Shown here: piece after piece, positions 15,075 through 35,194 of the stretch
How positions within the stretch are numbered: the stretch's first letter is position 1
Layout: every line of letters begins with the position of its first letter
From: Nanobdellota archaeon
GTDB taxonomy: Archaea; Nanobdellota; Nanobdellia; Pacearchaeales; GW2011-AR1
Direction of reading: 5' to 3'
NCBI GenBank assembly: GCA_038045765.1
Contig: JBBSXN010000005.1
Coordinates: forward strand, 226,144-290,143
Length of the DNA stretch: 64,000 nt
Made by a program: the position numbers and the translations under genes
The notes under the pieces: model-generated
Database searches by the model: none
What the model was told of the DNA's origin: nothing
Seen by the model: the letters and a program-made list of their open reading frames with translations, nothing else

Positions 15075-18000
15075 ATGATGCAAAAGAGGGCATTGAGTTA
15101 TTTATTTTTTAGCTTCGTCGCTGTTTTACTTTTAGTTTCAGTTGTGTCTGCTGTATGGTATAATCCTAATACTTGGTTTGAAAGTAAAAATAACGTTAGA
15201 TTAAGTCCTCCTGCTGAAAATAGTATTTTTGTTAATGCTGGTTACCTTGGACAATTAAATGATACCACTGCCCCGTATTCTTTTTCTCCTGGAGATGGAA
15301 ATGATTTTACTTTTTCTTTACAATTTAATAGTGCTTCTGGCGTCACTATACAGCGTATGAGTTTTTCTCATACAGGTTATACCAATGATGAGTATTGGAG
15401 AACTTATGGAAACCTTGCGAGTGTTTATCCATTAGTAATATTTGATTCTTCTGGAAATAAAATAAATAACGTTATGGTAGAGCCAGTTTTGACAGTGAGT
15501 TCCGGCGTACAAAATTATAGATTCTATATTCAACCAGGATACAATATATTTATGGGTGGTGCTTTAACTATTATTTTGAGTAATGGAGATGCAGTAACTC
15601 TTAATATTCCTGCAGGTGTTGGACAGACAGTTAGTTATGGAACATATGGTCAAGGCGGAGGAGGAAATCCAAATGCATGTACCTCATTTACATATGGTGA
15701 TTGGACTCCAGCAACATGTTCATATGGAAGTCAACAAACTAGAACTGTGACTGGTTCTCCGGCTGGATGCACTGGTGGAAGTCCTGAAGGAAGTTCAAGA
15801 ACTTGTCCAACCTGCACAGATAGTGATGCAGACTCGACACATCTTACTGGTTTGAACTTTGGTGTTTTTGGTACAGCAACCTATTACGCTGGAATAAGTC
15901 AGAGTGATTATTGTGGTAGCCCTTCAGCTGGACATGCAAATATATTATTTGAGTCTTATTGCAGACCAAGCGATGGAACTCCATCTACTGAATATTATTC
16001 TTGTGAGTATGGATGTGCAAGTGGAAGATGTTTAGATGCTCCTGTTGTTGCTTCTTGTACTGATTTGAATGTCACCACGAAGGCTTTGATTAATAGTAGA
16101 TTTGTTTATAATTCTGCTACTGGAAAATGGGCTGATAGCGATGGAGATTTGCTTCATTTGAATAGCAATGATTGGGTGAATAAGAGCCAATATGTAATCC
16201 TAGTTGCTGACAATGGAAGACAAGGCATTTATGAAATTACACAACTTACAAATAGTTCTTCTACTACTATTCCGAGTGATGATGAAATAACTTTGAAGGA
16301 TATGTCAACTGGGGCTTCAACAACTGCTAAAGCTATCACTGAAGGTGCTGGAAATATAACTCTGCTAGGAGCAAGTTATCAGTATAATTATAGAGGAACA
16401 CAAATTATCCCAGAGAGATCTAGACAAGTTAAGTTTAATTCTATGAAAGATTATTCTTCTTGTAGTATTTATACAGCGCCGACTTGTACTGATAGCGATG
16501 GTGGATTGAATTATAATGTTAAAGGATATACTAATGGAACAGATGCTAATGGGAACAAAGGTATTGCTACAGATACATGTGTTGATTCTTCTCCTGCAGG
16601 TTCTGTTGTGATGGCAGGTCCTGATTTAGTTGAAGTTTATTGTGATAACTCTCTTGCGAGTGAAAGAAGAACAACTTGTCCGAATGGATGTTATGATGGG
16701 GCTTGCGTTTATGGGGCTAATCAAGAAATTAGTTTGACTAATGTAAATAATATTGCTAATTTTAATCTTGGTAATGATTTAATGAAGGTTAAGTTACTTG
16801 CTGCTACAGATGTTTCTGCAACTATTGAGATTATTGATGGTCAAGAAGGTGTTGGTGCAGAAATAACTGAAGGAACTTCCAAAGTCATTGGAGGAGTTAA
16901 TGTTTATCTTGTCAGTGTTGATGAAAATACTGCACTTAATAGTATAAGTGCAGTCGTAGTTTTATCCTTAGAGCAAGTTTGTAAGGAATATATAGCAGAT
17001 ATAAAGAATCCTTCTGACTTCATCAAGAGTGGTTTGGCATTTGAATTGGATGGAAATGGAAGTTATACTGGTTCTGAGTGGGTTAAAGGTGGAAGCGGAT
17101 ATAAGGAATATTCTTATGATGCTAATTATGCTAACTGGAGAAATAACCATGATGGTAAATCTTATTACTTTGGCAAGACTGTGAAAGTGTTTGATGATGT
17201 TTCTTTTGATGTTAAGAAAATATTTGATGAGATTATTGAATCTGGTTTATGTGTAGAAAGAGAGTTTAATGGTGAATCTGCTTATATTTGTGCTTATAAT
17301 GGCTTAACAGGATCTAATGATTATAATTCTATAATTTGGTTTAATGATAATGTAATGGTTGTTGTTGATGTGGCTATTTGGGCTAAGGCAGTAAGTAACT
17401 CCGATATTAATGAGATTAATGACAAGAACTTGAATTCATTGGTAAGAGATATACAAAATAATCAGTATAAAGATATTAGTGAGAATTTTGAGTTAGATAG
17501 TGTGTTTAATTCAATTGTTGGAGATGATTTGCAATTGTGTTCATCAGATGTTTCTAATGATGGTGGATTTACCTTTGGAGCTTATTGCAAGATAGAACCG
17601 GTTGTGTGTCCTGAATATGGAAGACAGGTTGAAAAGTGTTATCGTTATGTAAATGGTAAAGAAGTTGTTAATGAGAAACAACTTTATTGTTCTCCTGGAG
17701 TATGTTCGGGATGTATGGTTCCTAGATGGATGGGATATGATTTTGCTGGAAGCAAGACTGAAAGCGTTTGTATTCCTTATGGAACAAGATTAGCTAATTC
17801 TCAAGATTCAGGTTCTGAGAGAATTTATGAAGGGTATTATACTGAAGGAGATAAGGAATACCTTAATTTGACTATATTTGATACAAGTTCAGGTTATTTG
17901 GATTTAGATATTGATGGTGCTGTGTTTAAGGGAGAGATATATGAATCAGCTATAGTCGATGCTGGCGAAATAATATTTACAGTTAAGGAAATATTTACTT

Positions 18001-18362
18001 CTGAAGAAGAAGGAGATAATGATGCGGAAGGATATATTGAAATAAGTATCGTTGAGAGCTTTGATGCTTACTGTAAGTATGATGGTGATTTGTATGAGCA
18101 GAAGGGTGATGATGCTGAGTGTCAGAATAACTATGAATGTTCAAGTAATGAGTGTAGGACAGGACAATGTGTAAATACTTATGTTGGTGTTTCACAGAAT
18201 ACGAATATACTTGTAAAGATAATATGTAGAATTGTTAATATTCCTCCATTTGGAGATGAGGATAGTTACAATCAATGCTTGTTAGAGTATGCTGGAGGAA
18301 GCGACGGAGGAACAAGTTCAGGTGGTTCTAATGGTGGGGGAAGCGGTGGATCTTCCGCTTAA
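15075..18362 (+). CDS. giant secreted protein (1095 aa), paralogue 1: signal peptide, conserved N-terminal domain, TSP1-like 4-Cys module, conserved C-terminal Cys module, Gly/Ser tail
   Basis: The signal peptide and leader MQKRALSYLFFSFVAVLLLVSVVSAVWYNPNTWF is shared with 29348 and 32696. ACTSFTYGDWTPATCSYGSQQTRTVTGSPAGCTGGSP is one 4-Cys module. CQNNYECSSNECRTGQC lies near the C-terminus. The probable true start is 15078. Confidence 0.7.
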   Translation: MMQKRALSYLFFSFVAVLLLVSVVSAVWYNPNTWFESKNNVRLSPPAENSIFVNAGYLGQLNDTTAPYSFSPGDGNDFTFSLQFNSASGVTIQRMSFSHTGYTNDEYWRTYGNLASVYPLVIFDSSGNKINNVMVEPVLTVSSGVQNYRFYIQPGYNIFMGGALTIILSNGDAVTLNIPAGVGQTVSYGTYGQGGGGNPNACTSFTYGDWTPATCSYGSQQTRTVTGSPAGCTGGSPEGSSRTCPTCTDSDADSTHLTGLNFGVFGTATYYAGISQSDYCGSPSAGHANILFESYCRPSDGTPSTEYYSCEYGCASGRCLDAPVVASCTDLNVTTKALINSRFVYNSATGKWADSDGDLLHLNSNDWVNKSQYVILVADNGRQGIYEITQLTNSSSTTIPSDDEITLKDMSTGASTTAKAITEGAGNITLLGASYQYNYRGTQIIPERSRQVKFNSMKDYSSCSIYTAPTCTDSDGGLNYNVKGYTNGTDANGNKGIATDTCVDSSPAGSVVMAGPDLVEVYCDNSLASERRTTCPNGCYDGACVYGANQEISLTNVNNIANFNLGNDLMKVKLLAATDVSATIEIIDGQEGVGAEITEGTSKVIGGVNVYLVSVDENTALNSISAVVVLSLEQVCKEYIADIKNPSDFIKSGLAFELDGNGSYTGSEWVKGGSGYKEYSYDANYANWRNNHDGKSYYFGKTVKVFDDVSFDVKKIFDEIIESGLCVEREFNGESAYICAYNGLTGSNDYNSIIWFNDNVMVVVDVAIWAKAVSNSDINEINDKNLNSLVRDIQNNQYKDISENFELDSVFNSIVGDDLQLCSSDVSNDGGFTFGAYCKIEPVVCPEYGRQVEKCYRYVNGKEVVNEKQLYCSPGVCSGCMVPRWMGYDFAGSKTESVCIPYGTRLANSQDSGSERIYEGYYTEGDKEYLNLTIFDTSSGYLDLDIDGAVFKGEIYESAIVDAGEIIFTVKEIFTSEEEGDNDAEGYIEISIVESFDAYCKYDGDLYEQKGDDAECQNNYECSSNECRTGQCVNTYVGVSQNTNILVKIICRIVNIPPFGDEDSYNQCLLEYAGGSDGGTSSGGSNGGGSGGSSA

Positions 18363-18368
18363 AGTTTC

Positions 18369-21300
18369 ATGAAGAGTAGTTATTATATTTTATTTTCTCT
18401 TATTGCTTTATTTGCTTTTGTTAGTTTGAGTTTTTTTGTTAGTGCAGTTTATCAAAATGATTTTAATTCTTTTGATAATGATTTAAAAAATAATATAAAT
18501 CATTCTAATTTTATTGACTTAAATAGAGATTTATATAAAATATCTTCTGAAGAGATATCTTTGACTAGTAGAGTTGCTTCTATTTTTGGTGTTGGAAAAG
18601 CAGTTGAGAAGAGAAATAGATTAGTTGCTGAATCTTTGGAAAGAAAAGAGGCTATGATTGACTTAGCTGAAGAAAATCCTGGCTTATTTCTATCCCAAGC
18701 AATTCCAGAGGAAGAACAGAATGAAAAATTTGAAGATGTTAAAGAAAATTTAGAAAAGGAAACAAGTCAAGAAGGTACATTATTGATTATGGAGAATCCT
18801 CATTTTCATGATCCTGTAAATGTGAATCATGAAGGCATGGATAATTTCAATTACTTCTTAGATACTAAAGATGAGAGGTATAATTTGAAATTCGCTGATG
18901 GTTCTGCTCCCGGTGCTTTTTCAGGATCTAGAGTTAAAGTTAGTGGAGTAGAGCTTGGAGATTATCTTGCTACTTCAAGTGCTGAAGCAAGCGGTTTTGA
19001 AGTTGTTGAAAGTTCTCCCCCTATAAGGGCTGAAAATTATGGTGTCCAGAAGATAGCTATAATTATTACAAAAGCTCCTGGAGATGAAGATTATGATCTA
19101 CCTTTTATAGAAAGTCATATGCAAAAAATAAATGATTATTATAATGAAGTAAGTTATGGGAGGGCTAGTTTGGAATGGGATGTTTATGGGCAATATGATG
19201 TTGAAGGTAGTGGATATGTTTCCATTACTCCTGAGATAGATTTAGATATAAATTTCAGTAAGTATTCTAGAATTATTTCAATTGATGAAAGAAATTGTTG
19301 GGGTTGTGCAGGTATAGGTATCTGGTCTCATTCCACTAATGAAGGAGAATTGAATATATCTGAGACTTGGGTTAAACCAGTAATTTTTCAGTCTTCTAAT
19401 TATTATAGTGTAATCGGACATGAACTAGGCCATAATTTTGGAGTGTTACATGCTAATAATTTAAGATGTGGAGATAAATATATAGATGATTTTGATAAAT
19501 GTATAAGCTATGAATATGGAGATCATTTTGATATAATGGGTTCAAATATTTATAGCTTCGAGACAGGCCATATTAACTCTTTATATAAAGAAACTATAAC
19601 TTGGCTTGGAAGCAATGAGATTGTTGAAGTAAGCTCGGATGGAATTTATACTTTAAATGCTTTTGAAAACTTAAGCGATAGAACCTCTTTAAAGATTCCT
19701 CGTATATTTGATGAATTTAGAAATGGTGAACGTTTTTATTATTTAGAATATAGAACTCCTGTTGGTCAGGATTCTTTTATTAGCAATACTCAAACTCAAA
19801 ACGGTCCTCAAGTTAGAATAGATAAATATTATTCAGGCTGGGGTGGCGGAGGAGATTCTCAGCTTCTTGATATGAATCCAGGAATATATCCTAGAAATGT
19901 CGGAATTAGTGTTGGGAATGTATTCTTTGATTCTGCAAGCAATGTTGAAATTAGAACTCTAGAGGTTAATTCTAAAAATGCTACTGTTCAAGTTAAAGTA
20001 AGCAATAAGACTTGTATTAGAAGAGCACCTACATTTAATATTTATCCTCATAGTATTTCAGGTACTTTGCATGAGACTTTTTATTATTCTTTTGAACTAA
20101 TAAACAATGATGAAAGTATATGCCCTGCTAAAGAAATATACCTTAATAATTCTAATCGAGAAGTCTCATTTTATATGGAGTCATATCCTTCGTATATATC
20201 TTCTAGTCCAGATTACCCTGCTTTAATAGCATCTGGAGAAAAGATAGAAGGCGTAATTATGCTTTATCCTAATTACTTTAGTAATGGTGGCGAATTAAGC
20301 ATAGATATATTGAATGCTGAGTCTGGAAGTATGTATGCCTCTCAAAATTTAGAATATCATGTTATTCCTGCTAATAGTGAACCAGTCAGTTTTGCAGGAG
20401 AAGATAAAGCAAGAAAATTCTTTTACGTTAGTAATTTCTTTGGTAATGGTTATTACTTGATAGATGAAGATGGTAAGGTTTATAGAAGAGGGTCAACAAG
20501 GTTTACAACAGATAATGTTAAAGAATTTCCATTTGGAAATAATATAAAAACGGCCTTTATTGATGGAGGAGAAAGTATTGTTATTTTAGATTCAGACAAT
20601 AAATTTTATGAAGGCGGTAGGAATATCATTTCTAGAATAAATAAATTTGACAAGATGCAAATTGATAATGATTTACCTTATTCTTATCATAATGTTCAAG
20701 ATATAGATATTTATGAATCAATATATGATAATTATAATAGTATTAGAAATCTTTTAATTTTACTTGATGATGGGTATGTATTTGCTAGTTCTGATATAAT
20801 AGATAGAGATAGTTGTATAACTTGGGATGGAAGAAGAGATTTAGAAAGAGAGGATGAAAGTCATGCCATAGCCCTATTACCTTGGAATGATTTTAATAAA
20901 CCTGATGGAGGCATTTATTCTCTTGAGACTATAGGATACTATGTCTTAAGTAAAGATGGCACAGTTTATGGATGCGGAGATGTGAATATATCTTATACTC
21001 ACTTTAATCAGCCATTACCTGCTGATTTGGGAACTGAAGATAGGACTGCTGTTGCTTTTGCACTTGATCAAGAAAAGGGCATTGTAATGGTTGATTCATA
21101 TGGTGAAGTTTATACTTCTGGAACTTTGACTCATCAAGGAAGTCCTTCATTTGGGCAGAATATCGCTAGAGATATACAGATTCTTCCTAGTAATGTAGAT
21201 GATGGTGAGGAAGGTGTGTCTGGTGAGGATGTTGCAGGATATGGCATCCTTAAAGGAACTGGGGAAATAATATCTTGTTCTGAAGGAAGAGGATGTGGAA

Positions 21301-21857
21301 CTGATATAATTATCTGTAATGATGATAAAGATTGTGATGATTTGAATGATGATACTGTTGATACATGTATTAATCCTGGCACTGTTGAAAGTTATTGCAG
21401 AAATGAAGGTGGATCTGGAAAGACTTGCACTGATAGTGATGGATTTGATATTACTGCACTTGGAAATGTGAATTATGATGGTGCTGTTTATAATGATGAG
21501 TGTTTAAGCGAGAAAGAAATATTGGAATACACTTGTGCTAGTTCTGGTTGGTTTAGCAGTGAGAAGGAAGTTAAAGCAAATAATAGAGAGTGTCAGTATT
21601 CATGTAGTGGAGGAAAGTGTGTCGATCAGGATAAGAATGTGCAGAGAGTATGTTCTGATAATGATGTTAGTAATAAATTGGATGTATATGGGGCTGTTTT
21701 GTTCAAAGGAGATGAATACAAAGATTCATGTGTTGAATCTGGATTAAGTGTAAAACAGTATTTCTGCGTTGATGACAAGTTAAGGAATTTTGTAAAGAGA
21801 TGTGCAAATGGGATGAGATGTATAAGTGGAAGTTGTCAGTATATTCCATCTGCTTAG
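18369..21857 (+). CDS. secreted metzincin-type zinc metalloprotease-like protein (1162 aa) with Cys-rich C-terminal modules
   Basis: N-terminal signal peptide. HELGHNFGVLH (19419-19451) matches HExxHxxGxxH. The C-terminus carries CQYSCSGGKCVD and CANGMRCISGSCQY modules. The gene starts 7 nt after the 15075 gene, which suggests an operon. Confidence 0.65.
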   Translation: MKSSYYILFSLIALFAFVSLSFFVSAVYQNDFNSFDNDLKNNINHSNFIDLNRDLYKISSEEISLTSRVASIFGVGKAVEKRNRLVAESLERKEAMIDLAEENPGLFLSQAIPEEEQNEKFEDVKENLEKETSQEGTLLIMENPHFHDPVNVNHEGMDNFNYFLDTKDERYNLKFADGSAPGAFSGSRVKVSGVELGDYLATSSAEASGFEVVESSPPIRAENYGVQKIAIIITKAPGDEDYDLPFIESHMQKINDYYNEVSYGRASLEWDVYGQYDVEGSGYVSITPEIDLDINFSKYSRIISIDERNCWGCAGIGIWSHSTNEGELNISETWVKPVIFQSSNYYSVIGHELGHNFGVLHANNLRCGDKYIDDFDKCISYEYGDHFDIMGSNIYSFETGHINSLYKETITWLGSNEIVEVSSDGIYTLNAFENLSDRTSLKIPRIFDEFRNGERFYYLEYRTPVGQDSFISNTQTQNGPQVRIDKYYSGWGGGGDSQLLDMNPGIYPRNVGISVGNVFFDSASNVEIRTLEVNSKNATVQVKVSNKTCIRRAPTFNIYPHSISGTLHETFYYSFELINNDESICPAKEIYLNNSNREVSFYMESYPSYISSSPDYPALIASGEKIEGVIMLYPNYFSNGGELSIDILNAESGSMYASQNLEYHVIPANSEPVSFAGEDKARKFFYVSNFFGNGYYLIDEDGKVYRRGSTRFTTDNVKEFPFGNNIKTAFIDGGESIVILDSDNKFYEGGRNIISRINKFDKMQIDNDLPYSYHNVQDIDIYESIYDNYNSIRNLLILLDDGYVFASSDIIDRDSCITWDGRRDLEREDESHAIALLPWNDFNKPDGGIYSLETIGYYVLSKDGTVYGCGDVNISYTHFNQPLPADLGTEDRTAVAFALDQEKGIVMVDSYGEVYTSGTLTHQGSPSFGQNIARDIQILPSNVDDGEEGVSGEDVAGYGILKGTGEIISCSEGRGCGTDIIICNDDKDCDDLNDDTVDTCINPGTVESYCRNEGGSGKTCTDSDGFDITALGNVNYDGAVYNDECLSEKEILEYTCASSGWFSSEKEVKANNRECQYSCSGGKCVDQDKNVQRVCSDNDVSNKLDVYGAVLFKGDEYKDSCVESGLSVKQYFCVDDKLRNFVKRCANGMRCISGSCQYIPSA

Positions 21858-27723: not shown

Positions 27724-28170
27724 TTAAGTGCAAGGCTTTATTTCTTTTCTATCTAATTCACAGCTCGATACTGAAATAATTAATTCTCCTGCCTCAAAGG
27801 TTGAGGGTGCTAGATTATATAATTTAGATTCTCCTTGTTCTGGTAACTTGCAATTTGCACATGAACCTCCGACCTGCCAGCGCTCTTTTTTGTTTTCAAT
27901 TACATGTGTGAAATCTATACTTGATATTTGCTCAGTGTTGATATTTCTTTTTATTGTTGTTTTAATTTCATTGTTTACTGAATTGTAGCAGGCACTTTCA
28001 ATTTTAAGAGCCTGATTTATTTTTAAATCTAAGCAGGAGCTTTCAGGAGAAAGCTGGACTGATTTTACTGATTTAATTACATAAGTAGATATTATAGTCA
28101 CAGCTATAATGCTTACGAGTATAATTAGTGTGGTTGCAATTACACTTGATAGCGCTTTTTTATTCATCAT
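27724..28170 (-). CDS. archaeal type IV pilin-like protein (class III signal peptide)
   Basis: N-terminus MMNKKALSSVIATTLIILVSIIAV matches the archaeal pilin consensus (K-[GA]-[LI]-S-P-V-I-A-T...). Confidence 0.5.
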   Translation of the reverse strand: MMNKKALSSVIATTLIILVSIIAVTIISTYVIKSVKSVQLSPESSCLDLKINQALKIESACYNSVNNEIKTTIKRNINTEQISSIDFTHVIENKKERWQVGGSCANCKLPEQGESKLYNLAPSTFEAGELIISVSSCELDRKEIKPCT

Positions 28171-29315
28171 TCTATTTTACAAGGCCTCCCATCTATATTA
28201 TCAATTTGTAAAGTGGCTATCTTCTTGTCTAGTGTTTTATCATATATTTCAAGCGTCTTTGCTGATTCTAGAGTAGGTATTCTGATATATAACTCTCCTT
28301 CGTAATTGTATGTCTCTCCAGAAATTTCTTCTTCTCCTGATTGTTGTGAATCGGTGAATATTAATTCAGGATTGAAAGAATCTTCCGCTAGTGTTTCAAA
28401 ATTTTCATTTAAAATATTAAATGAGAAAGAACCTTCACCATTTTTACCAGTACATCCTTGCTCTATATGTCTATCGTTAATTGTTAAAGAACCAGAAGAA
28501 TAATTTGCTGATATTAGATAGTAAAATTGATTTTCACAATTTGTTTCTGATTGAATTGCATTTCCAGTTATTGTTTTTCCTGAGCTTGTTTTTATTTTAC
28601 TTTCTATTAAAAATTCATTGAATTTTCCAAGACTTGTTGAATAGAGAGTTTTCATTAATCCAGAGTCTATTGAACGGTAATAATTGCTTTCTGAACAGCC
28701 TTGAAAACAGCCCTCATTTAATTCATTGAACTCTGAGCAGTCTTTTACACAATTTTTTACATTTCTAGGTAAGTTTGCAGGAGTATATTCTTCAGCAAGG
28801 TTTGCAAACGAATGACTGAATTCATGTGTAATAACTGATTTTGGATTTTTTGTGTTTATACTCATCACATTAAGATAAGAAGAGCTTCTTATTCTTTCTT
28901 GGTCTTCATTTAAAACAAAAATATAATCATTTGGACAGGCACTCGCCTTTCTTATTAAATCTCTTGAGTAGCAGTATAATGCTATTTCTTTATAGTATTC
29001 ACATTCTATTTTCTCATCTATGTAAAAGACATTAAATGATTCTTTTAATTTATTCAGCGGAGAAGTTGATAATAAGTAATCTATATATTCCTTAGTTTGA
29101 TTTTCTGATGCGAAAAATAATAGGTTTATTGATGCGGATGGATTGCTGTAGAGTTGATTACAGGTTTCTTTAGTTTCTGGGCTCAGATTTGTTGGATAAA
29201 AAAAGTAAATTGCTAACCCTATTATAATTAATAGACCTATAATTGAAGAAATTATAATTGACTTGTTTTCCATTGATTCTTTAGAATAAACTGACTTAAA
29301 TAGTTTATTAGACAA
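28167..29315 (-). CDS. membrane-anchored secreted protein with HExxH zinc-binding motif
   Basis: N-terminal TM segment. The motif is HEFSHSFANLAEEY. The ORF overlaps the pilin gene by 4 nt. Confidence 0.45.
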   Translation of the reverse strand: MSNKLFKSVYSKESMENKSIIISSIIGLLIIIGLAIYFFYPTNLSPETKETCNQLYSNPSASINLLFFASENQTKEYIDYLLSTSPLNKLKESFNVFYIDEKIECEYYKEIALYCYSRDLIRKASACPNDYIFVLNEDQERIRSSSYLNVMSINTKNPKSVITHEFSHSFANLAEEYTPANLPRNVKNCVKDCSEFNELNEGCFQGCSESNYYRSIDSGLMKTLYSTSLGKFNEFLIESKIKTSSGKTITGNAIQSETNCENQFYYLISANYSSGSLTINDRHIEQGCTGKNGEGSFSFNILNENFETLAEDSFNPELIFTDSQQSGEEEISGETYNYEGELYIRIPTLESAKTLEIYDKTLDKKIATLQIDNIDGRPCKIE

Positions 29316-29347: not shown

Positions 29348-32300
29348 ATGCAAAAGAGGCTAGTGAATTATTTATTTTTTAGTTTTGTTGCTGTTTTACT
29401 TTTAGTTTCAGTTGTTTCTGCTGTTTGGTGGAATCCTAGTACTTGGTTTAATGGAAGAGGAATAACTGGAAATCCAGTAGCTAGTGCAACAGATTATACT
29501 TCTAATTTAGTAGCTTACTGGAAGTTTGATGAGGCTTCTTATTCTGGTGGCTCTGGTCAGGTAAAAGATTATCTTGGATTTAGTAATGGCACTCCAGTTA
29601 GTTCTCCAACTATTGTACCAGGATTGAAAGGTAATGCTGTTAGATTTACTGGTGCTGGTGGTCAAAAAATATTAATTTCCACTACTCCTACTAAATTTAA
29701 TTTAGGTAGTTTTACTCTATCTGCATGGGTTAAGACAAGTGACGCTGGAACTGGTAGAAGGAGAATATTTAGTCAGCAAAATAGTGATTATTATGGTATT
29801 GCTTTAAATGGTAATAATCTTGAGTGTTTCTCCTCTTTAGACTTCGGAGTTACACAATACAATAGCCCTTCGACTGCTGTTCTAAATAATAATCAATGGC
29901 ATCATGTATCTTGTGTAAGAAATACTGGTATTAATAAATTCTTATTATATATTGATGGGGTAAATGTTAAAAATAGCTCTATTACTGGTTCTTCTAGCTA
30001 TGCTATGGGTGCTGGAGGCATTTCCATAAGCCAATATCTTGGCGGAAATTCTGAAATATTTACTGGGCTTATTGATGAGCTTAGAGTTTACAATACTGCT
30101 TTAACTAGTACTCAAATCAATCAAGTGTATGATTTTGCTAAGCCTGCTAGTAGTGCTCAAGCATGTACTTCATTTACATATTCGGAATGGAGTGTTTGTT
30201 CTACTTTAGGACAGCAAGCAAAAACAATTCTTACTAGAACTCCAGATGGATGTACTGGAGGAAGTCCTGAAGCTTTGACAAGGAGTTGTACTTATTATGA
30301 TCCTAATAGAATTTATGTTAATTATACTGTTTCTAGTATGATTTCACCTTATTATTTAACTAATGCAGTTGTTAATTTATCTTATGCTGGAGCAAGTTAT
30401 CCATGTAATTTTATCTCAAAACCTACTAGTTCATTTCCTAATTATGGTATTTATAGGTGTAATGTTCCAAGACTTGGTCAAACAGGAATTTATTATACAT
30501 TATCTTCTTCTGCTCCAGGTTATGCTCAAGATATTGCTTCTTTAGGAAATTCTTTTAATGCTGGAGAATATACTGCTTCAATTATTTTGAATCCATTACC
30601 TCCAACTTGTACATCATTTACATATTCAGACTGGAGTACATGTACATCAGCAGGTTCTCAGACAAAGACAATTCTTACTAGCAACCCATCTGGGTGTTCT
30701 GGTGGAACACCTGAAGCTTTGACACGGAGTTGTCATCCAGACGGAGGTATTGCTACTGCTAGCTTAAGTGGATTGACTGCTATATATGATGGAACACCAA
30801 AATCTATTAGTGTAACAACTAACCCTCCAGGTATATCTACAATAGTGACTTATAATGGTGTAACTACTCCTCCAACTGCGGCAGGTTCTTACGCTGTCAC
30901 AGTAACTGCTAGCCCTCCAACTTTAGCAACTGCTCCTATTTTTACAATGAATACAATGGCAGCATTAGTTATCAATAAAGCAGATCAAACTATTGTATTT
31001 CCCACTATTTCTCCACAAGTTACAGCTGTTCCTTTCGGTTTGAGTGCTACCTCTAGTTCAGGATTACCTGTAAGTTTTAATATTCAAGCAGATCTTGTTT
31101 CAGGTTCTGGAACAATTATAAATAATGTCCTTACTGCTACTGAAGCAGGAGTTGTTACTGTTCGTGCTAGTCAAGCAGGAAATAATAATTATAATCCTGC
31201 TCCTTTTATTGATAAAACAATTTCAGTGAGTTCTCCTTTTAAAACAGTGCAGATTGGTGAGTGGGCTAATGTTGGAGATTCTATACAACTTGCTGGTGCT
31301 ACTTTAGCTAAAGTTCAAAGTATTTCTAGTTCATCAAGTGCAAGCTTTTTTGATAATGATAATGTAGTCTTTCATCAAACAACTTCTGGTGGACCTATAA
31401 CTGGAAAAACTTTTAATGCTATTTCTAAAGGGATAGCTTCTACTCATAATGGTCCTGATTCTAATCATCTTCCTTATTTTGAAGGCGGAATAAATGGTAA
31501 GTTCTATAATGTAGAATATAGAGGAGTTACAGGTTCAACTGCAAATTCTCCTCAAGCTAGACTAGTAGCTATTGTTTGCACTGGAGGAGATTGGATTGGA
31601 ACTGTTAGTCCTTGCACTCCTAGTGGAAATAAAACTATAGAATGGACAAAATCTCCTGCTTATTGTGATTCAACTTTGGCTGGAAGTGTAAATCATCCTG
31701 CGAGTGAAGTTGTTACTTGTACTTATGTTCCTCCAGTTTCTACTCCTATTGCTAATAGTACCTTCCTTTATTATATCAAGAATCAAAGTGGTGCGTCAAT
31801 TCCAGGAGTACAATATAATTTGAAGAATTCAACTGGCGGAGTGTTTGATGATAATTGTATATTTGATGTTTCATCAGGATTGATGTGTGTTAATTTATTC
31901 GCAGGTAATTATTTGTTGAATGTTTCCGCTTCTAATTACTTTTCACAAGTCTTGTCTTTATCTTTAACTCAGAATTATAGAGGTCCTAATTATCCAAATA
32001 ATATTATTACTTTGTCTGGTGCTAGTACTGGAACTACCACTTCTACAATTGGCGCGAATGTTGCTGGATGCAGTGATACAGATGCTGATGCTGCTAATCT
32101 TGGTGGAGTTGATTATAATGAACGAGGAACATTTACTGCTCCTGCAGAGAGTAGTTGGACTGTTGCTCAGAGGACTGATTATTGTGTTAGTGCTATGAGA
32201 TTAGCTGAATATTCATGCGATCCTGCACCTGCTGGTTTTGATTATAATGGTGTTGAAGTAGATTGTCCTGGTGGATGTTCTGAGGGAAGATGTATCGGTT

Positions 32301-32653
32301 CCGGAACTGGTGGAGAAGGAACAACTACTGGAACTGGTGGTGGAACTACAACTACAACTACAACTGGAACTGGCGGATCAGGTACGACTGAAGCAACTAC
32401 TGGAGGAGTTGTTTGTGCAGATGGATGTTCATTAGAAAGTGGACAGTGCGTTCCTCTTGGATATAGAATTGGTGGAAAATATTGTGATGTGAGCAAGAGT
32501 TTGGTAACTTATAAAGCCGATTCAGCTGATTGTGAAAATAATTTTGAATGTGGAAGTAATGTTTGCGTCTCAAATAAATGTATTGAGGCAGGATTTTTGC
32601 AGAAGATTAGTGATTGGTTTAGTAACCTATTTGCAACATCTTCAGCATCTTAA
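29348..32653 (+). CDS. giant secreted protein (1101 aa), paralogue 2: LamG domain, two TSP1-like 4-Cys modules, MBG/Ig-like domains, Thr/Gly linker, conserved C-terminal Cys module
   Basis: Shared leader MQKRLVNYLFFSFVAVLLLVSVVSAVWWNPSTWF. LamG_3 region (LVAYWKFDE...LRVYNTALTSTQINQVY). Modules ACTSFTYSEWSVCSTLGQQAKTILTRTPDGCTGGSPEALTRSC and TCTSFTYSDWSTCTSAGSQTKTILTSNPSGCSGGTPEALTRSC. YDG/MBG-like segment (LTAIYDGTPKSISVTTNPPGISTIVTYNG...AGSYAVTVTAS). C-terminal CENNFECGSNVCVSNKC. Confidence 0.7.
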   Translation: MQKRLVNYLFFSFVAVLLLVSVVSAVWWNPSTWFNGRGITGNPVASATDYTSNLVAYWKFDEASYSGGSGQVKDYLGFSNGTPVSSPTIVPGLKGNAVRFTGAGGQKILISTTPTKFNLGSFTLSAWVKTSDAGTGRRRIFSQQNSDYYGIALNGNNLECFSSLDFGVTQYNSPSTAVLNNNQWHHVSCVRNTGINKFLLYIDGVNVKNSSITGSSSYAMGAGGISISQYLGGNSEIFTGLIDELRVYNTALTSTQINQVYDFAKPASSAQACTSFTYSEWSVCSTLGQQAKTILTRTPDGCTGGSPEALTRSCTYYDPNRIYVNYTVSSMISPYYLTNAVVNLSYAGASYPCNFISKPTSSFPNYGIYRCNVPRLGQTGIYYTLSSSAPGYAQDIASLGNSFNAGEYTASIILNPLPPTCTSFTYSDWSTCTSAGSQTKTILTSNPSGCSGGTPEALTRSCHPDGGIATASLSGLTAIYDGTPKSISVTTNPPGISTIVTYNGVTTPPTAAGSYAVTVTASPPTLATAPIFTMNTMAALVINKADQTIVFPTISPQVTAVPFGLSATSSSGLPVSFNIQADLVSGSGTIINNVLTATEAGVVTVRASQAGNNNYNPAPFIDKTISVSSPFKTVQIGEWANVGDSIQLAGATLAKVQSISSSSSASFFDNDNVVFHQTTSGGPITGKTFNAISKGIASTHNGPDSNHLPYFEGGINGKFYNVEYRGVTGSTANSPQARLVAIVCTGGDWIGTVSPCTPSGNKTIEWTKSPAYCDSTLAGSVNHPASEVVTCTYVPPVSTPIANSTFLYYIKNQSGASIPGVQYNLKNSTGGVFDDNCIFDVSSGLMCVNLFAGNYLLNVSASNYFSQVLSLSLTQNYRGPNYPNNIITLSGASTGTTTSTIGANVAGCSDTDADAANLGGVDYNERGTFTAPAESSWTVAQRTDYCVSAMRLAEYSCDPAPAGFDYNGVEVDCPGGCSEGRCIGSGTGGEGTTTGTGGGTTTTTTTGTGGSGTTEATTGGVVCADGCSLESGQCVPLGYRIGGKYCDVSKSLVTYKADSADCENNFECGSNVCVSNKCIEAGFLQKISDWFSNLFATSSAS

Positions 32654-32695
32654 CTTATGGAAAATATTTATATATCTGCAAGAAATGTTTCTTTA

Positions 32696-35194
32696 ATGCA
32701 AAAGAGATTTCTTAATTATTTATTTTTTAGTTTCGTTGCTGTTTTACTTTTAGTTTCAGTTGTTTCTGCAGTTTGGTGGAATCCAAATACTTGGTTTGAA
32801 GGAAGAGGAATAACTGGGAATGTTGTATCTCCTAGTCAAATTTTTGTTAAAGTAGCTTATTTAGGGAAGATAGATAATAAGGCTGCTCCTTATTCTTTTT
32901 CTCCTGGTGCTGGGAATGATTTTAGTTTTTCTTTACAATTTGATAGTCCTTCCGGTCTTAAAATACAACGAATGAGTTTTACTCGCACTAGTAGTGGCGA
33001 GTATTGGAGAACTTACGGATCTAATGACCCTATTAATGTTTACCCAATTGTAATTTTTGATTCTAATAATCATAGAATAAACAATGCTATGGTTGAGCCA
33101 GCTTTAATTGTCCCTTCTGGCTTGCAAAATTATACTTTTTATTTTGAACCAGGAAGTCCGAATTTTGTAGGAGGAACTTTAACAATTCATTTACAGAATG
33201 AGGTTACCCCAATAACTATTAATGTTCCGGCAGGAGTTGGACAGATAATTACATATGGTTCATATGATTCACATGTATGTACTTCATTTACTTATAGTGC
33301 TTGGACTCCTGCAATATGTTCACTTGGAAGTCAGCAGACTAGAACTGTAACTTCAAGAAGTCCAGCAGGATGTACGACTGGAGTAAGTCCAGTATTAACT
33401 CAAGGTTGTAATGTTCCCACATGTACTTCATTTACATATTCAGATTGGGGTGTATGTCAATCTAATAATCAACAAGCCAGAACTGTGACTGCAAGCAGTC
33501 CGGCTGGATGCACTGGTGGAAGTCCATTATTATATAGGGGTTGCACTCCTTTTGTTTTACCTGCTAATGATAATTTTGTTAATGCTATTTTGATAAATAA
33601 TTATGCTTCAAGTACTGGTACTGTTAATGTAAATTTGAATGGTGCGGGAACTGAGAGTGGTGAAAATAACTTAGCAGGAAACACTGTTTGGTATAGATTT
33701 AATGCTCCTGGGGCAGGTAATTTAAATATTAATTATAATTCTCCTACTGCTGGTGGAATGACTTTAGATTCTAATTTGAGATTATATTCTGGAAGTAGCT
33801 TGTCTTCTCTTATTTTATTGAGAGAGAATTCAATGGTTAATCATGGTCAGACGGTTAGTTTAAATGTTGCTCAACCTGGTAATTATTATTTACAGTTTGG
33901 AAGAAGTGCAGGTAATTTTGGAGCAGGTACTGCTACATTCACTTATGCTTTTCAATCTCTGGCTTCTGGAGCATGTATAGATACTGATGTTAATGCTACT
34001 TATCCTGATGGATTGAATTATTATCTTACTGGTTCTGCTAGCGGTTCTAGTGGGATAGGTTCTAGTGATTATTGCGGTGCAGGATATTATTCAAATACAG
34101 TCTATGAATCTTATTGTAGAGCTTCTGATAATTCAGTCACTACCGCTTATTATAATTGTCCTACTGGAACTGTTTGTACCAATGGTGCTTGTTCAGTTGG
34201 AAGTGCAGTAGTTTCACCTACTCCAGTAGCTTGTACATCATTTAATGTTGGTTCATATAATGCTTGTAGTGGTGGTCAGCAGACTAGAAGTGTTACTGGA
34301 GTTCCTGCAGGGTGTGTTGGAGGAGTAACGCCTCCGGCTAGTTCTCAAGCTTGTTCAGAGCCTAGTATTCCAACTTGTACTGATGCAGATTGGACTTATG
34401 TTGTTGTTGCTCCATCTACTTGTTCTGCTGGTTATTCAAAAGAAAGAAGATGGAGTAAAACTGGAAATTGTGAAGGAGGAATAACTCATGATACCTCTGA
34501 ATATTTACCTTGCAGTTATCCTTATGGTCCTCTTCCTTGTTCTTCATATACATATGGTGAGTGGACTCCTGCTAATTGTGCTGTTGGAAGTCAACAAACT
34601 AGAACAGCATTAGGGTCTTATGGAGGAGGTTTAGGAGGAGTTTATTATGCACAGTGCATTGGAGGAAATCCTGCAGCCATTTCAAGAATTTGTCCTGAAA
34701 ATACTCAGACTGTTACTGATACTAGTTGTTCTTATGGTGATTCTCCTGTTTGTTCAAATGATGAGATTACATATTCAAATTCATGCAATGCTGTAGCTGC
34801 TGGTGCGACTGTCTCTTGTCAGGGTGAGTGTCCTTGTCCTGCTGGAAATCCTGCTCCTAGCCCTGGTGTCGTTCCTGTAGCTGTTCCTGTTCCTACAGTT
34901 ATAACTCCTCCGACCGGTACTGGAATTGCTCCAGTAGTTTCTCCGACAGGTACTTGTTCTAGTGGATGTGAGTTAGATAATAATTGTGTAGATTTTGGAC
35001 ATAGATCGAGTGCAAAGTATTGTGCTTTGTCAGGCATGGTTGACTTTAAGGATATTGGTGTAAGTTGCGATAATAGTTTTGAATGTTCAACTAATTCATG
35101 TATTTCTGGAAAATGTTCCGAAGCGAATATAATTCAGAATATTGTTAAATGGTTTAAAGATAATTGTCCTTCATTTATTTGTTCTGTTAAATAA
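32696..35194 (+). CDS. giant secreted protein (~832 aa from this start), paralogue 3: conserved N-terminal domain, four TSP1-like 4-Cys modules, conserved C-terminal Cys module
   Basis: The ORF track begins at 32657. Homology to the paralogues (MQKRFLNYLFFSFVAVLLLVSVVSAVWWNPNTWF) and a TATA box at 32666-32675 place the start at ATG 32696. Modules VCTSFTYSAWTPAICSLGSQQTRTVT, TCTSFTYSDWGVCQSNNQQARTVT and others. C-terminal CDNSFECSTNSCISGKC. Confidence 0.65.
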   Translation: MQKRFLNYLFFSFVAVLLLVSVVSAVWWNPNTWFEGRGITGNVVSPSQIFVKVAYLGKIDNKAAPYSFSPGAGNDFSFSLQFDSPSGLKIQRMSFTRTSSGEYWRTYGSNDPINVYPIVIFDSNNHRINNAMVEPALIVPSGLQNYTFYFEPGSPNFVGGTLTIHLQNEVTPITINVPAGVGQIITYGSYDSHVCTSFTYSAWTPAICSLGSQQTRTVTSRSPAGCTTGVSPVLTQGCNVPTCTSFTYSDWGVCQSNNQQARTVTASSPAGCTGGSPLLYRGCTPFVLPANDNFVNAILINNYASSTGTVNVNLNGAGTESGENNLAGNTVWYRFNAPGAGNLNINYNSPTAGGMTLDSNLRLYSGSSLSSLILLRENSMVNHGQTVSLNVAQPGNYYLQFGRSAGNFGAGTATFTYAFQSLASGACIDTDVNATYPDGLNYYLTGSASGSSGIGSSDYCGAGYYSNTVYESYCRASDNSVTTAYYNCPTGTVCTNGACSVGSAVVSPTPVACTSFNVGSYNACSGGQQTRSVTGVPAGCVGGVTPPASSQACSEPSIPTCTDADWTYVVVAPSTCSAGYSKERRWSKTGNCEGGITHDTSEYLPCSYPYGPLPCSSYTYGEWTPANCAVGSQQTRTALGSYGGGLGGVYYAQCIGGNPAAISRICPENTQTVTDTSCSYGDSPVCSNDEITYSNSCNAVAAGATVSCQGECPCPAGNPAPSPGVVPVAVPVPTVITPPTGTGIAPVVSPTGTCSSGCELDNNCVDFGHRSSAKYCALSGMVDFKDIGVSCDNSFECSTNSCISGKCSEANIIQNIVKWFKDNCPSFICSVK

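Follow-up and report, generated by a model that had tools for sequence, protein, structure and literature searches.

The thrombospondin type-1 repeat (TSR; Pfam TSP_1, PF00090) and the midkine-type domains are usually regarded as eukaryotic, largely metazoan or apicomplexan, extracellular inventions. The canonical TSR, as seen in TSP-1 (TSR2-3, PDB 1lsl and 3r6b), MIC2 (8j64), properdin and F-spondin (1vex), has a WxxWxxW and an RxRxR motif and six Cys in three disulfides; its WxxW is a C-mannosylation motif and its CSx[ST]CG an O-fucosylation site. The midkine/pleiotrophin (MK/PTN) C-domain (PF01091; PDB 1mkc, 2lut and 2n6f) is a single domain of a small metazoan cytokine and carries basic heparin-binding clusters. 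Here we compare with both a four-Cys module of about 46 amino acids (aa) that is repeated in three open reading frames (ORFs A, B and C) of a Nanobdellota archaeon. The DNA analysed, referred to as the window, is the 64,000-nucleotide stretch from 226,144 to 290,143 of contig JBBSXN010000005.1 (assembly GCA_038045765.1). An earlier note on this DNA had listed seven copies of the module and likened them to TSRs.

Our preferred reading, to which we assign a probability of about 0.6, is that the repeats are a widespread but unnamed prokaryotic extracellular module which has the TSR superfold, is related to the MK/PTN C-domain and acts as a disulfide-locked stalk or spacer.

The module and the proteins that carry it

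Two profiles were used, profile A1 being an alignment of nine candidate segments of the window and profile A2 a family profile of 97 diverse modules. When the whole window was translated in all six frames and searched with profile A2, every filter being disabled, exactly seven significant copies were found, with scores of 28-75 bits and independent E-values from 1.6e-22 to 7e-8 (Table 1). All remaining window segments scored 5 bits or less. The seven copies are those listed in the earlier note, displaced by a few bases, and the three ORFs it had placed at 15075, 29348 and 32696 were found as open frames, all on the + strand. Its consensus motif was also accurate, the four Cys being invariant and Y9, W12, R23 and P30 being at least 90% conserved. 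The seven window copies belong to the family as defined by a profile match together with the invariant Cys plus Y9, W12, R23 and P30. Two further stretches on the + strand, 34370-34522 between copies C3 and C5 and 31577-31735 in ORF B, had looked by eye like degenerate four-Cys copies; they scored -1.3 and 3.3 bits, respectively, and were rejected.

The two copies in ORF B had been thought to share ~80% of their DNA sequence and so to reflect a recent intragenic duplication. The measured DNA identity of copies B1 and B2 is 72% gapped or 75% ungapped over 134 nt, with 64% protein identity, thus recent duplication within ORF B was overstated and is rejected. The remaining pairs of window copies are 49-70% identical in DNA.

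At their N termini ORFs A, B and C have almost the same signal region, MQKRxxxYLFFSFVAVLLLVSVVSAVW[WY]NPxTWF, with 74-88% DNA identity over 135 nt, suggesting that the three are paralogues in which a signal for export or processing has been conserved. Given that the signal peptide of ORF C is homologous with those of ORFs A and B, ORF C probably starts at 32696 rather than at 32657. ORF A contains an N-terminal domain common to ORF C, one TSR-like module and two copies of a different, six-Cys module (CxDSD, see below). The layout of ORF B is a signal peptide followed by LamG (aa 110-258), a module, a beta domain of ~100 aa, a second module, MBG_3 (aa 469-522) and more domains. ORF C comprises four modules and, in addition, a PPC-like domain, a single CxDSD module, a segment resembling Kazal domains and a Cys-rich domain at the C terminus.

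Fold and nearest relatives

A structure prediction for one module, to be set against the three-stranded TSR fold, had been proposed in the earlier note. AlphaFold2, supplied with copy B1 and the 97-sequence alignment, gave a model with a predicted local distance difference test score (pLDDT) of 92.4 and strands at residues 6-9, 20-22, 25-29 and 42-44. The fold is elongated, three-stranded and antiparallel and is superimposable on solved TSRs. A shallower model, made independently for the copy in ORF A (pLDDT 80.6), had four structural matches, three of them to MIC2, TSP-1 TSR2-3 and BAI1 TSR3 and the fourth to an immunoglobulin (Ig) domain. Foldseek against the PDB gave no significant match (best E 0.8); the non-significant list includes the TSR-containing chains C6, UNC5A and MIC2, and also Elapor1. 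In the module alignment, uncorrected for phylogeny, loss of W12 goes with loss of R23 (odds ratio 9.9, Fisher p=3e-8) and Q21 co-varies with Q42, and neither W12 nor R23 associates with P30, P38 or G36. Both observations are consistent with contact between Trp and Arg and with strand B pairing with strand C. We describe the module as a minimal unit of the TSR superfold, of the midkine-C type, with two predicted disulfides and one putative Trp-Arg pair.

The likeness to TSRs stands at the level of the TSR/midkine fold class, whereas the nearest sequence family is the MK/PTN C-domain and not canonical TSP_1. The window proteins and nine window segments gave no TSP_1 match even at E<=10. The module has one conserved Trp (plus F7 and Y9) and one Arg where the TSR has three of each in its motifs, and exactly four invariant Cys, predicted to form two disulfides, where the TSR has six. 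The CSxTCG motif of the TSR is not present. In the hhalign register, Y9 corresponds to the second and W12 to the third TSR Trp, Cys15 to TSR Cys1, the last Cys to TSR Cys5 and the G-x-Q-x-R of the module to the strand-B motif. The TSR WxxW falls on Y-S-x-W and CSx[ST]CG on a stretch without a second Cys, so that neither motif occurs in the module. Since the triple Trp, the triple Arg, the six Cys and a match to the Pfam model are all lacking, the module is not classed as a TSP_1 repeat.

No Pfam or NCBIfam model was matched by the module in the window proteins or in single window copies, and PDB sequence-profile searches with profile A1 (nine copies) and profile A2 (97 copies) were empty even at E<=10. 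The relationship to MK/PTN came from a shorter sister form of 43-44 aa, C-T-Y-x-Y-x-x-W-G-x-C..., which in many homologous proteins shares its arrays with the 46-aa form. The two forms are linked because short-form variants score 36-46 bits with a hidden Markov model (HMM) built from window copies only. The Pfam model of the MK/PTN C-domain, PTN_MK_C, scores above its gathering cutoff of 25.3 bits on short-form proteins (P0026, 40.2 bits, E 4e-10; P0043, 37.4; P0011, 28.5; P0023, 26.2), a cutoff not reached by the window copies. When the 97 single modules were compared with Pfam, weak but mutually consistent matches were obtained to PTN_MK_C (12 modules), the ELAPOR1-like C-terminal domain (PF23089; 7, best E 0.004), TSP_1 (4, best E 5e-3), TSP1_ADAMTS (2) and TSP1_spondin (1).

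The midkine and TSP-1 sequences used for comparison were checked against PDB entries. When 166 short-form modules were combined into a profile, it aligned over its full length with the MK/PTN C-domains of human and zebrafish, with all four Cys collinear, and scored 17-18 bits on the isolated domains. Given that only one of ~2,000 shuffles in which the Cys positions were kept reached such scores (null mean 1.2, standard deviation 2.3), the sequence similarity exceeds what Cys spacing would give. The hhalign comparisons are suggestive only: with individual MK or PTN sequences, profile A2 aligned over the N-terminal part only (26-47% probability), and with small alignments of MK C-domains or of TSP-1/properdin TSRs it gave P=4e-4 and P=9e-4, respectively, with probabilities of 23-34%.

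There are also differences from midkine. Compared with the midkine C-domain, the first loop of the window copies is longer by one or more residues and the C2-C3 segment is shorter by 4. The basic heparin-binding clusters are absent, the mean net charge of the module being -0.03 compared with +6 for the human MK and +4 for the PTN C-domain. Lastly, the module is strung into long tandem arrays within mosaic proteins of prokaryotes and is not the single domain of a small cytokine.

Distribution, role and origin of the family

Using the whole of ORF C as query retrieved 112 proteins, and the HMM made from window copies only found between 1 and 10 modules in every one of them. Profile A1 as a homology query against a 5.8-billion-sequence database gave nothing at E<=1e-3, the query being too short for a database of this size. 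Profile A2, run against 1.84 billion cluster representatives (50% identity), found 2,057 proteins at E<=1e-3, 1,449 at E<=1e-10 and 409 at E<=1e-30, with 1-14 copies per protein. The bacterial carriers include Parcubacteria, Staskawiczbacteria, Dojkabacteria, Saccharibacteria, Peregrinibacteria, Moraniibacteriota, Nitrospirota/Thermodesulfovibrio, Methylomirabilis, Pseudobdellovibrio, Bacteroidota and Gammaproteobacteria, and the archaeal carriers Woesearchaeota, Nanoarchaeota and Diapherotrites. Cultured carriers are Anaeromyxobacter terrae, A. soli and Anaeromyxobacter strain Fw109-5. The family is large, mostly bacterial and unnamed and is not an archaeal oddity. It has no dedicated Pfam or NCBIfam model, the databases reaching it through marginal PTN_MK_C matches only, and no description of it was found in the literature on TSR or midkine domains in prokaryotes, the candidate phyla radiation (CPR) or DPANN archaea. 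The one mention of thrombospondin, in a CPR-related preprint, concerns type-3 repeats. The bacterial type-3 repeat (PF18884, TSP3_bac) is a calcium-binding Asp-rich repeat of prokaryotic surface proteins that is unrelated to the module in sequence or fold, although the two co-occur in proteins P0044, P0092 and P0104.

Among 954 distinct modules the four Cys (C4/C15/C33/C44) are invariant. Conservation is also high at F/Y/W7 (97%), Y9 (97%), W12 (93%), Q21 (90%), R23 (96%), P30 (99%), G36 (89%) and P38 (89%). The other positions are mostly Thr and Ser, with only 1.0% Lys and 2.8% Arg overall. An N-x-[ST] sequon is found in 451 of the 954 modules, with a column consensus of N18-G19-T20, which suggests that many sequons lie at the predicted A-B turn; the sequon could reflect a preference of the turn for these residues or, in the archaeal carriers, serve for N-glycosylation.

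In a set of 244 module proteins, 186 of the 226 starting with Met have an N-terminal hydrophobic signal, the gap between consecutive copies is mostly 0-4 residues and 64 proteins have at least one CxxCH motif. The partner domains of the family are extracellular: the binding or catalytic LamG, MBG, cohesin, PKD, beta-helix/NosD, PG_binding_1 and c-type cytochrome domains, as well as F5/8-C, Big_13, FG-GAP, fn3, proteases and glycoside hydrolases. In the window, the modules connect LamG, MBG, PPC-like, Kazal-like and other Cys-rich modules in ORFs A-C.

The search for related loci was made with a narrow alignment and samples only modules containing CTSFTYSD. One of the proteins observed is WP_242344121.1 of Anaeromyxobacter terrae (L009 2125-3459, NZ_JALCYY010000019.1), a lipoprotein annotated solely as 'c-type cytochrome'. 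Its parts are a lipobox signal, an unknown domain of ~150 aa, four modules and, at the C terminus, one CASCH haem domain; its module stalk may hold the haem domain at a fixed distance from the membrane. Close relatives are present in A. soli and strain Fw109-5, and there are comparable stalk-plus-cytochrome proteins in Nitrospirota/Thermodesulfovibrio. Copy C2 of the window is 76% identical in protein sequence to a module from a bacterial metagenome-assembled genome of Thermodesulfovibrio (L004 3001-3135). Such identity is unusually high between domains of life and could result from strong constraint or from transfer of module-bearing genes between domains.

A spacer or scaffold role is proposed because the module is fused to many unrelated extracellular domains, forms tight tandem arrays and has its conservation confined to likely core residues. 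After export, each unit would be locked by disulfides Cys1-Cys3 and Cys2-Cys4, an assignment made by analogy with midkine, and by stacking of Trp12 on Arg23, giving a thin, elongated rod. Units in tandem would then make a stiff, protease-resistant stalk able to space functional domains and project them from the cell surface. In the archaeon the projected domains would be those of the three paralogous surface or secreted proteins. ORFs A-C probably serve the cell in attaching to a host or substrate, and it is plausible that they are attachment proteins of a DPANN episymbiont.

The alternative that fares best is that the module itself is chiefly a ligand-binding adhesion unit recognising glycans or cell-surface polymers, which in the DPANN proteins would attach directly to the host cell. 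Eukaryotic TSR and midkine domains do bind ligands, glycosaminoglycans among them, and the invariant R23 aligns with midkine R81, which we take to be a heparin-binding residue. The module is also carried by episymbionts of the DPANN and CPR groups, in which contact between surface proteins and host is expected, and it stands beside lectin-type domains such as LamG and F5/8-C. However, its near-zero charge is unlike that of the MK and PTN C-domains, the conserved residues (the Cys, Y9, W12, R23, P30, G36 and P38) are those expected in the core, leaving a surface of variable Ser and Thr, and the functional domains joined to it differ widely and include periplasmic or surface cytochromes. Linkers of 0-4 aa in tandem arrays are, moreover, typical of stalks. 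Direct ligand binding by the module is thus possible, with no indication of it in the data, and we regard it as unlikely to be the chief role.

The same superfold could also have been reached by convergence, an independent small disulfide-rich beta-hairpin domain having come to resemble the TSR and midkine domains because few shapes are possible and not through common ancestry. We consider this explanation a little less probable than a binding role. A recent transfer of a TSR from a eukaryote to the archaeon followed by recent intragenic duplication, for which one could cite a fold class best known from eukaryotes and repeats in several paralogues within 20 kb, is very improbable and was rejected, since the family extends over ~2,057 clusters (50% identity) from DPANN archaea and a wide range of bacterial phyla, with isolates of Anaeromyxobacter among the carriers, there is no close eukaryotic match, as the window copies miss TSP_1, the copies are only 49-75% identical in DNA, and the GC content of the module genes (0.31-0.37) is near the range of the window (0.27-0.37).

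The finding of this module means that the TSR/midkine fold is not confined to eukaryotes and raises the question of the origin of the TSR fold. A more far-reaching proposal, which we put forward only tentatively and think rather doubtful, is that the eukaryotic TSR and MK/PTN domains descend from the prokaryotic family. If this were true, a minimal surface-protein module with two disulfides, one Trp and one Arg would have arisen in bacteria or archaea and then been acquired by early eukaryotes. In these it would have been built up into the TSR with six Cys and several Trp that is known from the extracellular matrix, complement and apicomplexan adhesins, placing the origin of the TSR domain outside eukaryotes. 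In one sense the result is incremental as the 'eukaryotic' EGF, FN3, Ig, LamG and Kazal modules already have prokaryotic counterparts. Of practical value is a domain annotation for thousands of 'hypothetical' surface proteins. These include, in CPR and DPANN organisms, the big cysteine-rich proteins dominating the predicted surface proteome of ultrasmall episymbionts. The Anaeromyxobacter lipoprotein cytochromes are cultured, tractable carriers in which questions about TSR-like stalks can be addressed.

Other features of the surface-protein cluster

The coordinates of the features in the window are collected in Table 1. The region is a cluster of genes for surface or secreted proteins.

Table 1. 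Module copies, module-bearing ORFs and other features of the window (positions in window coordinates; scores from profile A2)
Feature	Position	Strand	Details
ORF A	15075-18362	+	1095 aa; secreted mosaic protein with signal peptide
ORF B	29348-32653	+	1101 aa
ORF C	32657-35194 (alternative start 32696)	+	845 aa
Signal region, ORF A	15078-15212		
Signal region, ORF B	29348-29482		
Signal region, ORF C	32696-32830		
Copy A1	15669-15806	+	aa 199-244 of ORF A; 48.0 bits, independent E 5e-14; NACTSFTYGDWTPATCSYGSQQTRTVTGSPAGCTGGSPEGSSRTC
Copy B1	30158-30295	+	ORF B; 64 bits; sequence used for structure prediction
Copy B2	30599-30736	+	ORF B; 64.8 bits, independent E 3e-19
Copy C1	33272-33412	+	ORF C; 59.8 bits
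Copy C2	33416-33547	+	ORF C; directly tandem to C1; 75.3 bits
Copy C3	34226-34357	+	ORF C; Y in place of W12; 43.1 bits
Copy C5	34535-34696	+	ORF C; ~10-aa Gly/Tyr-rich insertion before Cys3; 28.4 bits, independent E 7e-8
CxDSD module	15813-16031		
CxDSD module	16485-16706		
CxDSD module	21426-21620		
CxDSD module	21651-21836		
CxDSD module	32069-32278		
CxDSD module	33974-34192		
Kazal-like segment	34724-34849		ORF C aa 690-731; SCSYGDSPVCSNDEITYSNSCNAVAAGATVSCQGEC
C-terminal Cys-rich motif, ORF A	18120-18170		pattern search
C-terminal Cys-rich motif, ORF B	32531-32581		pattern search
C-terminal Cys-rich motif, ORF C	~35060-35130		by eye only, coordinates approximate
Metalloprotease-like ORF	18369-21857		HELGHNFGVLH
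Metalloprotease-like ORF	28167-29315	-	HEFSHSF

A protein identical to ORF B (P0039) is labelled 'LamG-like jellyroll fold domain-containing protein [Nanoarchaeota archaeon]' by NCBI, and the identical product is found on contigs of 0.1-um-filtered Hainich groundwater metagenomes (ERZ1292619 and others). An exact look-up of the ORF C protein with either start codon gave no match. The genes neighbouring ORF B include those for deoxyhypusine synthase, TrmB and a GatB-type subunit. We accordingly regard the source as a DPANN archaeon from groundwater.

The CxDSD module, which is unrelated to the four-Cys module, is ~62-74 aa long, has six Cys, starts with C-x-D-[ST]-D, ends with G-x-C and has no Pfam match. 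Its six copies are spread over four neighbouring secreted proteins, namely ORFs A, B and C and the metalloprotease-like ORF at 18369-21857. The latter resembles a secreted zinc metalloprotease, with sub-threshold matches to the Reprolysin family, an RCC1-like repeat and two of the CxDSD modules; the ORF on the - strand also resembles a secreted zinc metalloprotease. The Kazal-like segment scores below the cutoff for Pfam Kazal_1 (E=0.087) and would, if genuine, be another 'eukaryote-type' extracellular module in ORF C. Near their ends all three module-bearing ORFs have a Cys-rich motif, C-x-N-x-[FY]-E-C-x-S-N-x-C...C, which may represent a common anchoring or oligomerisation domain.

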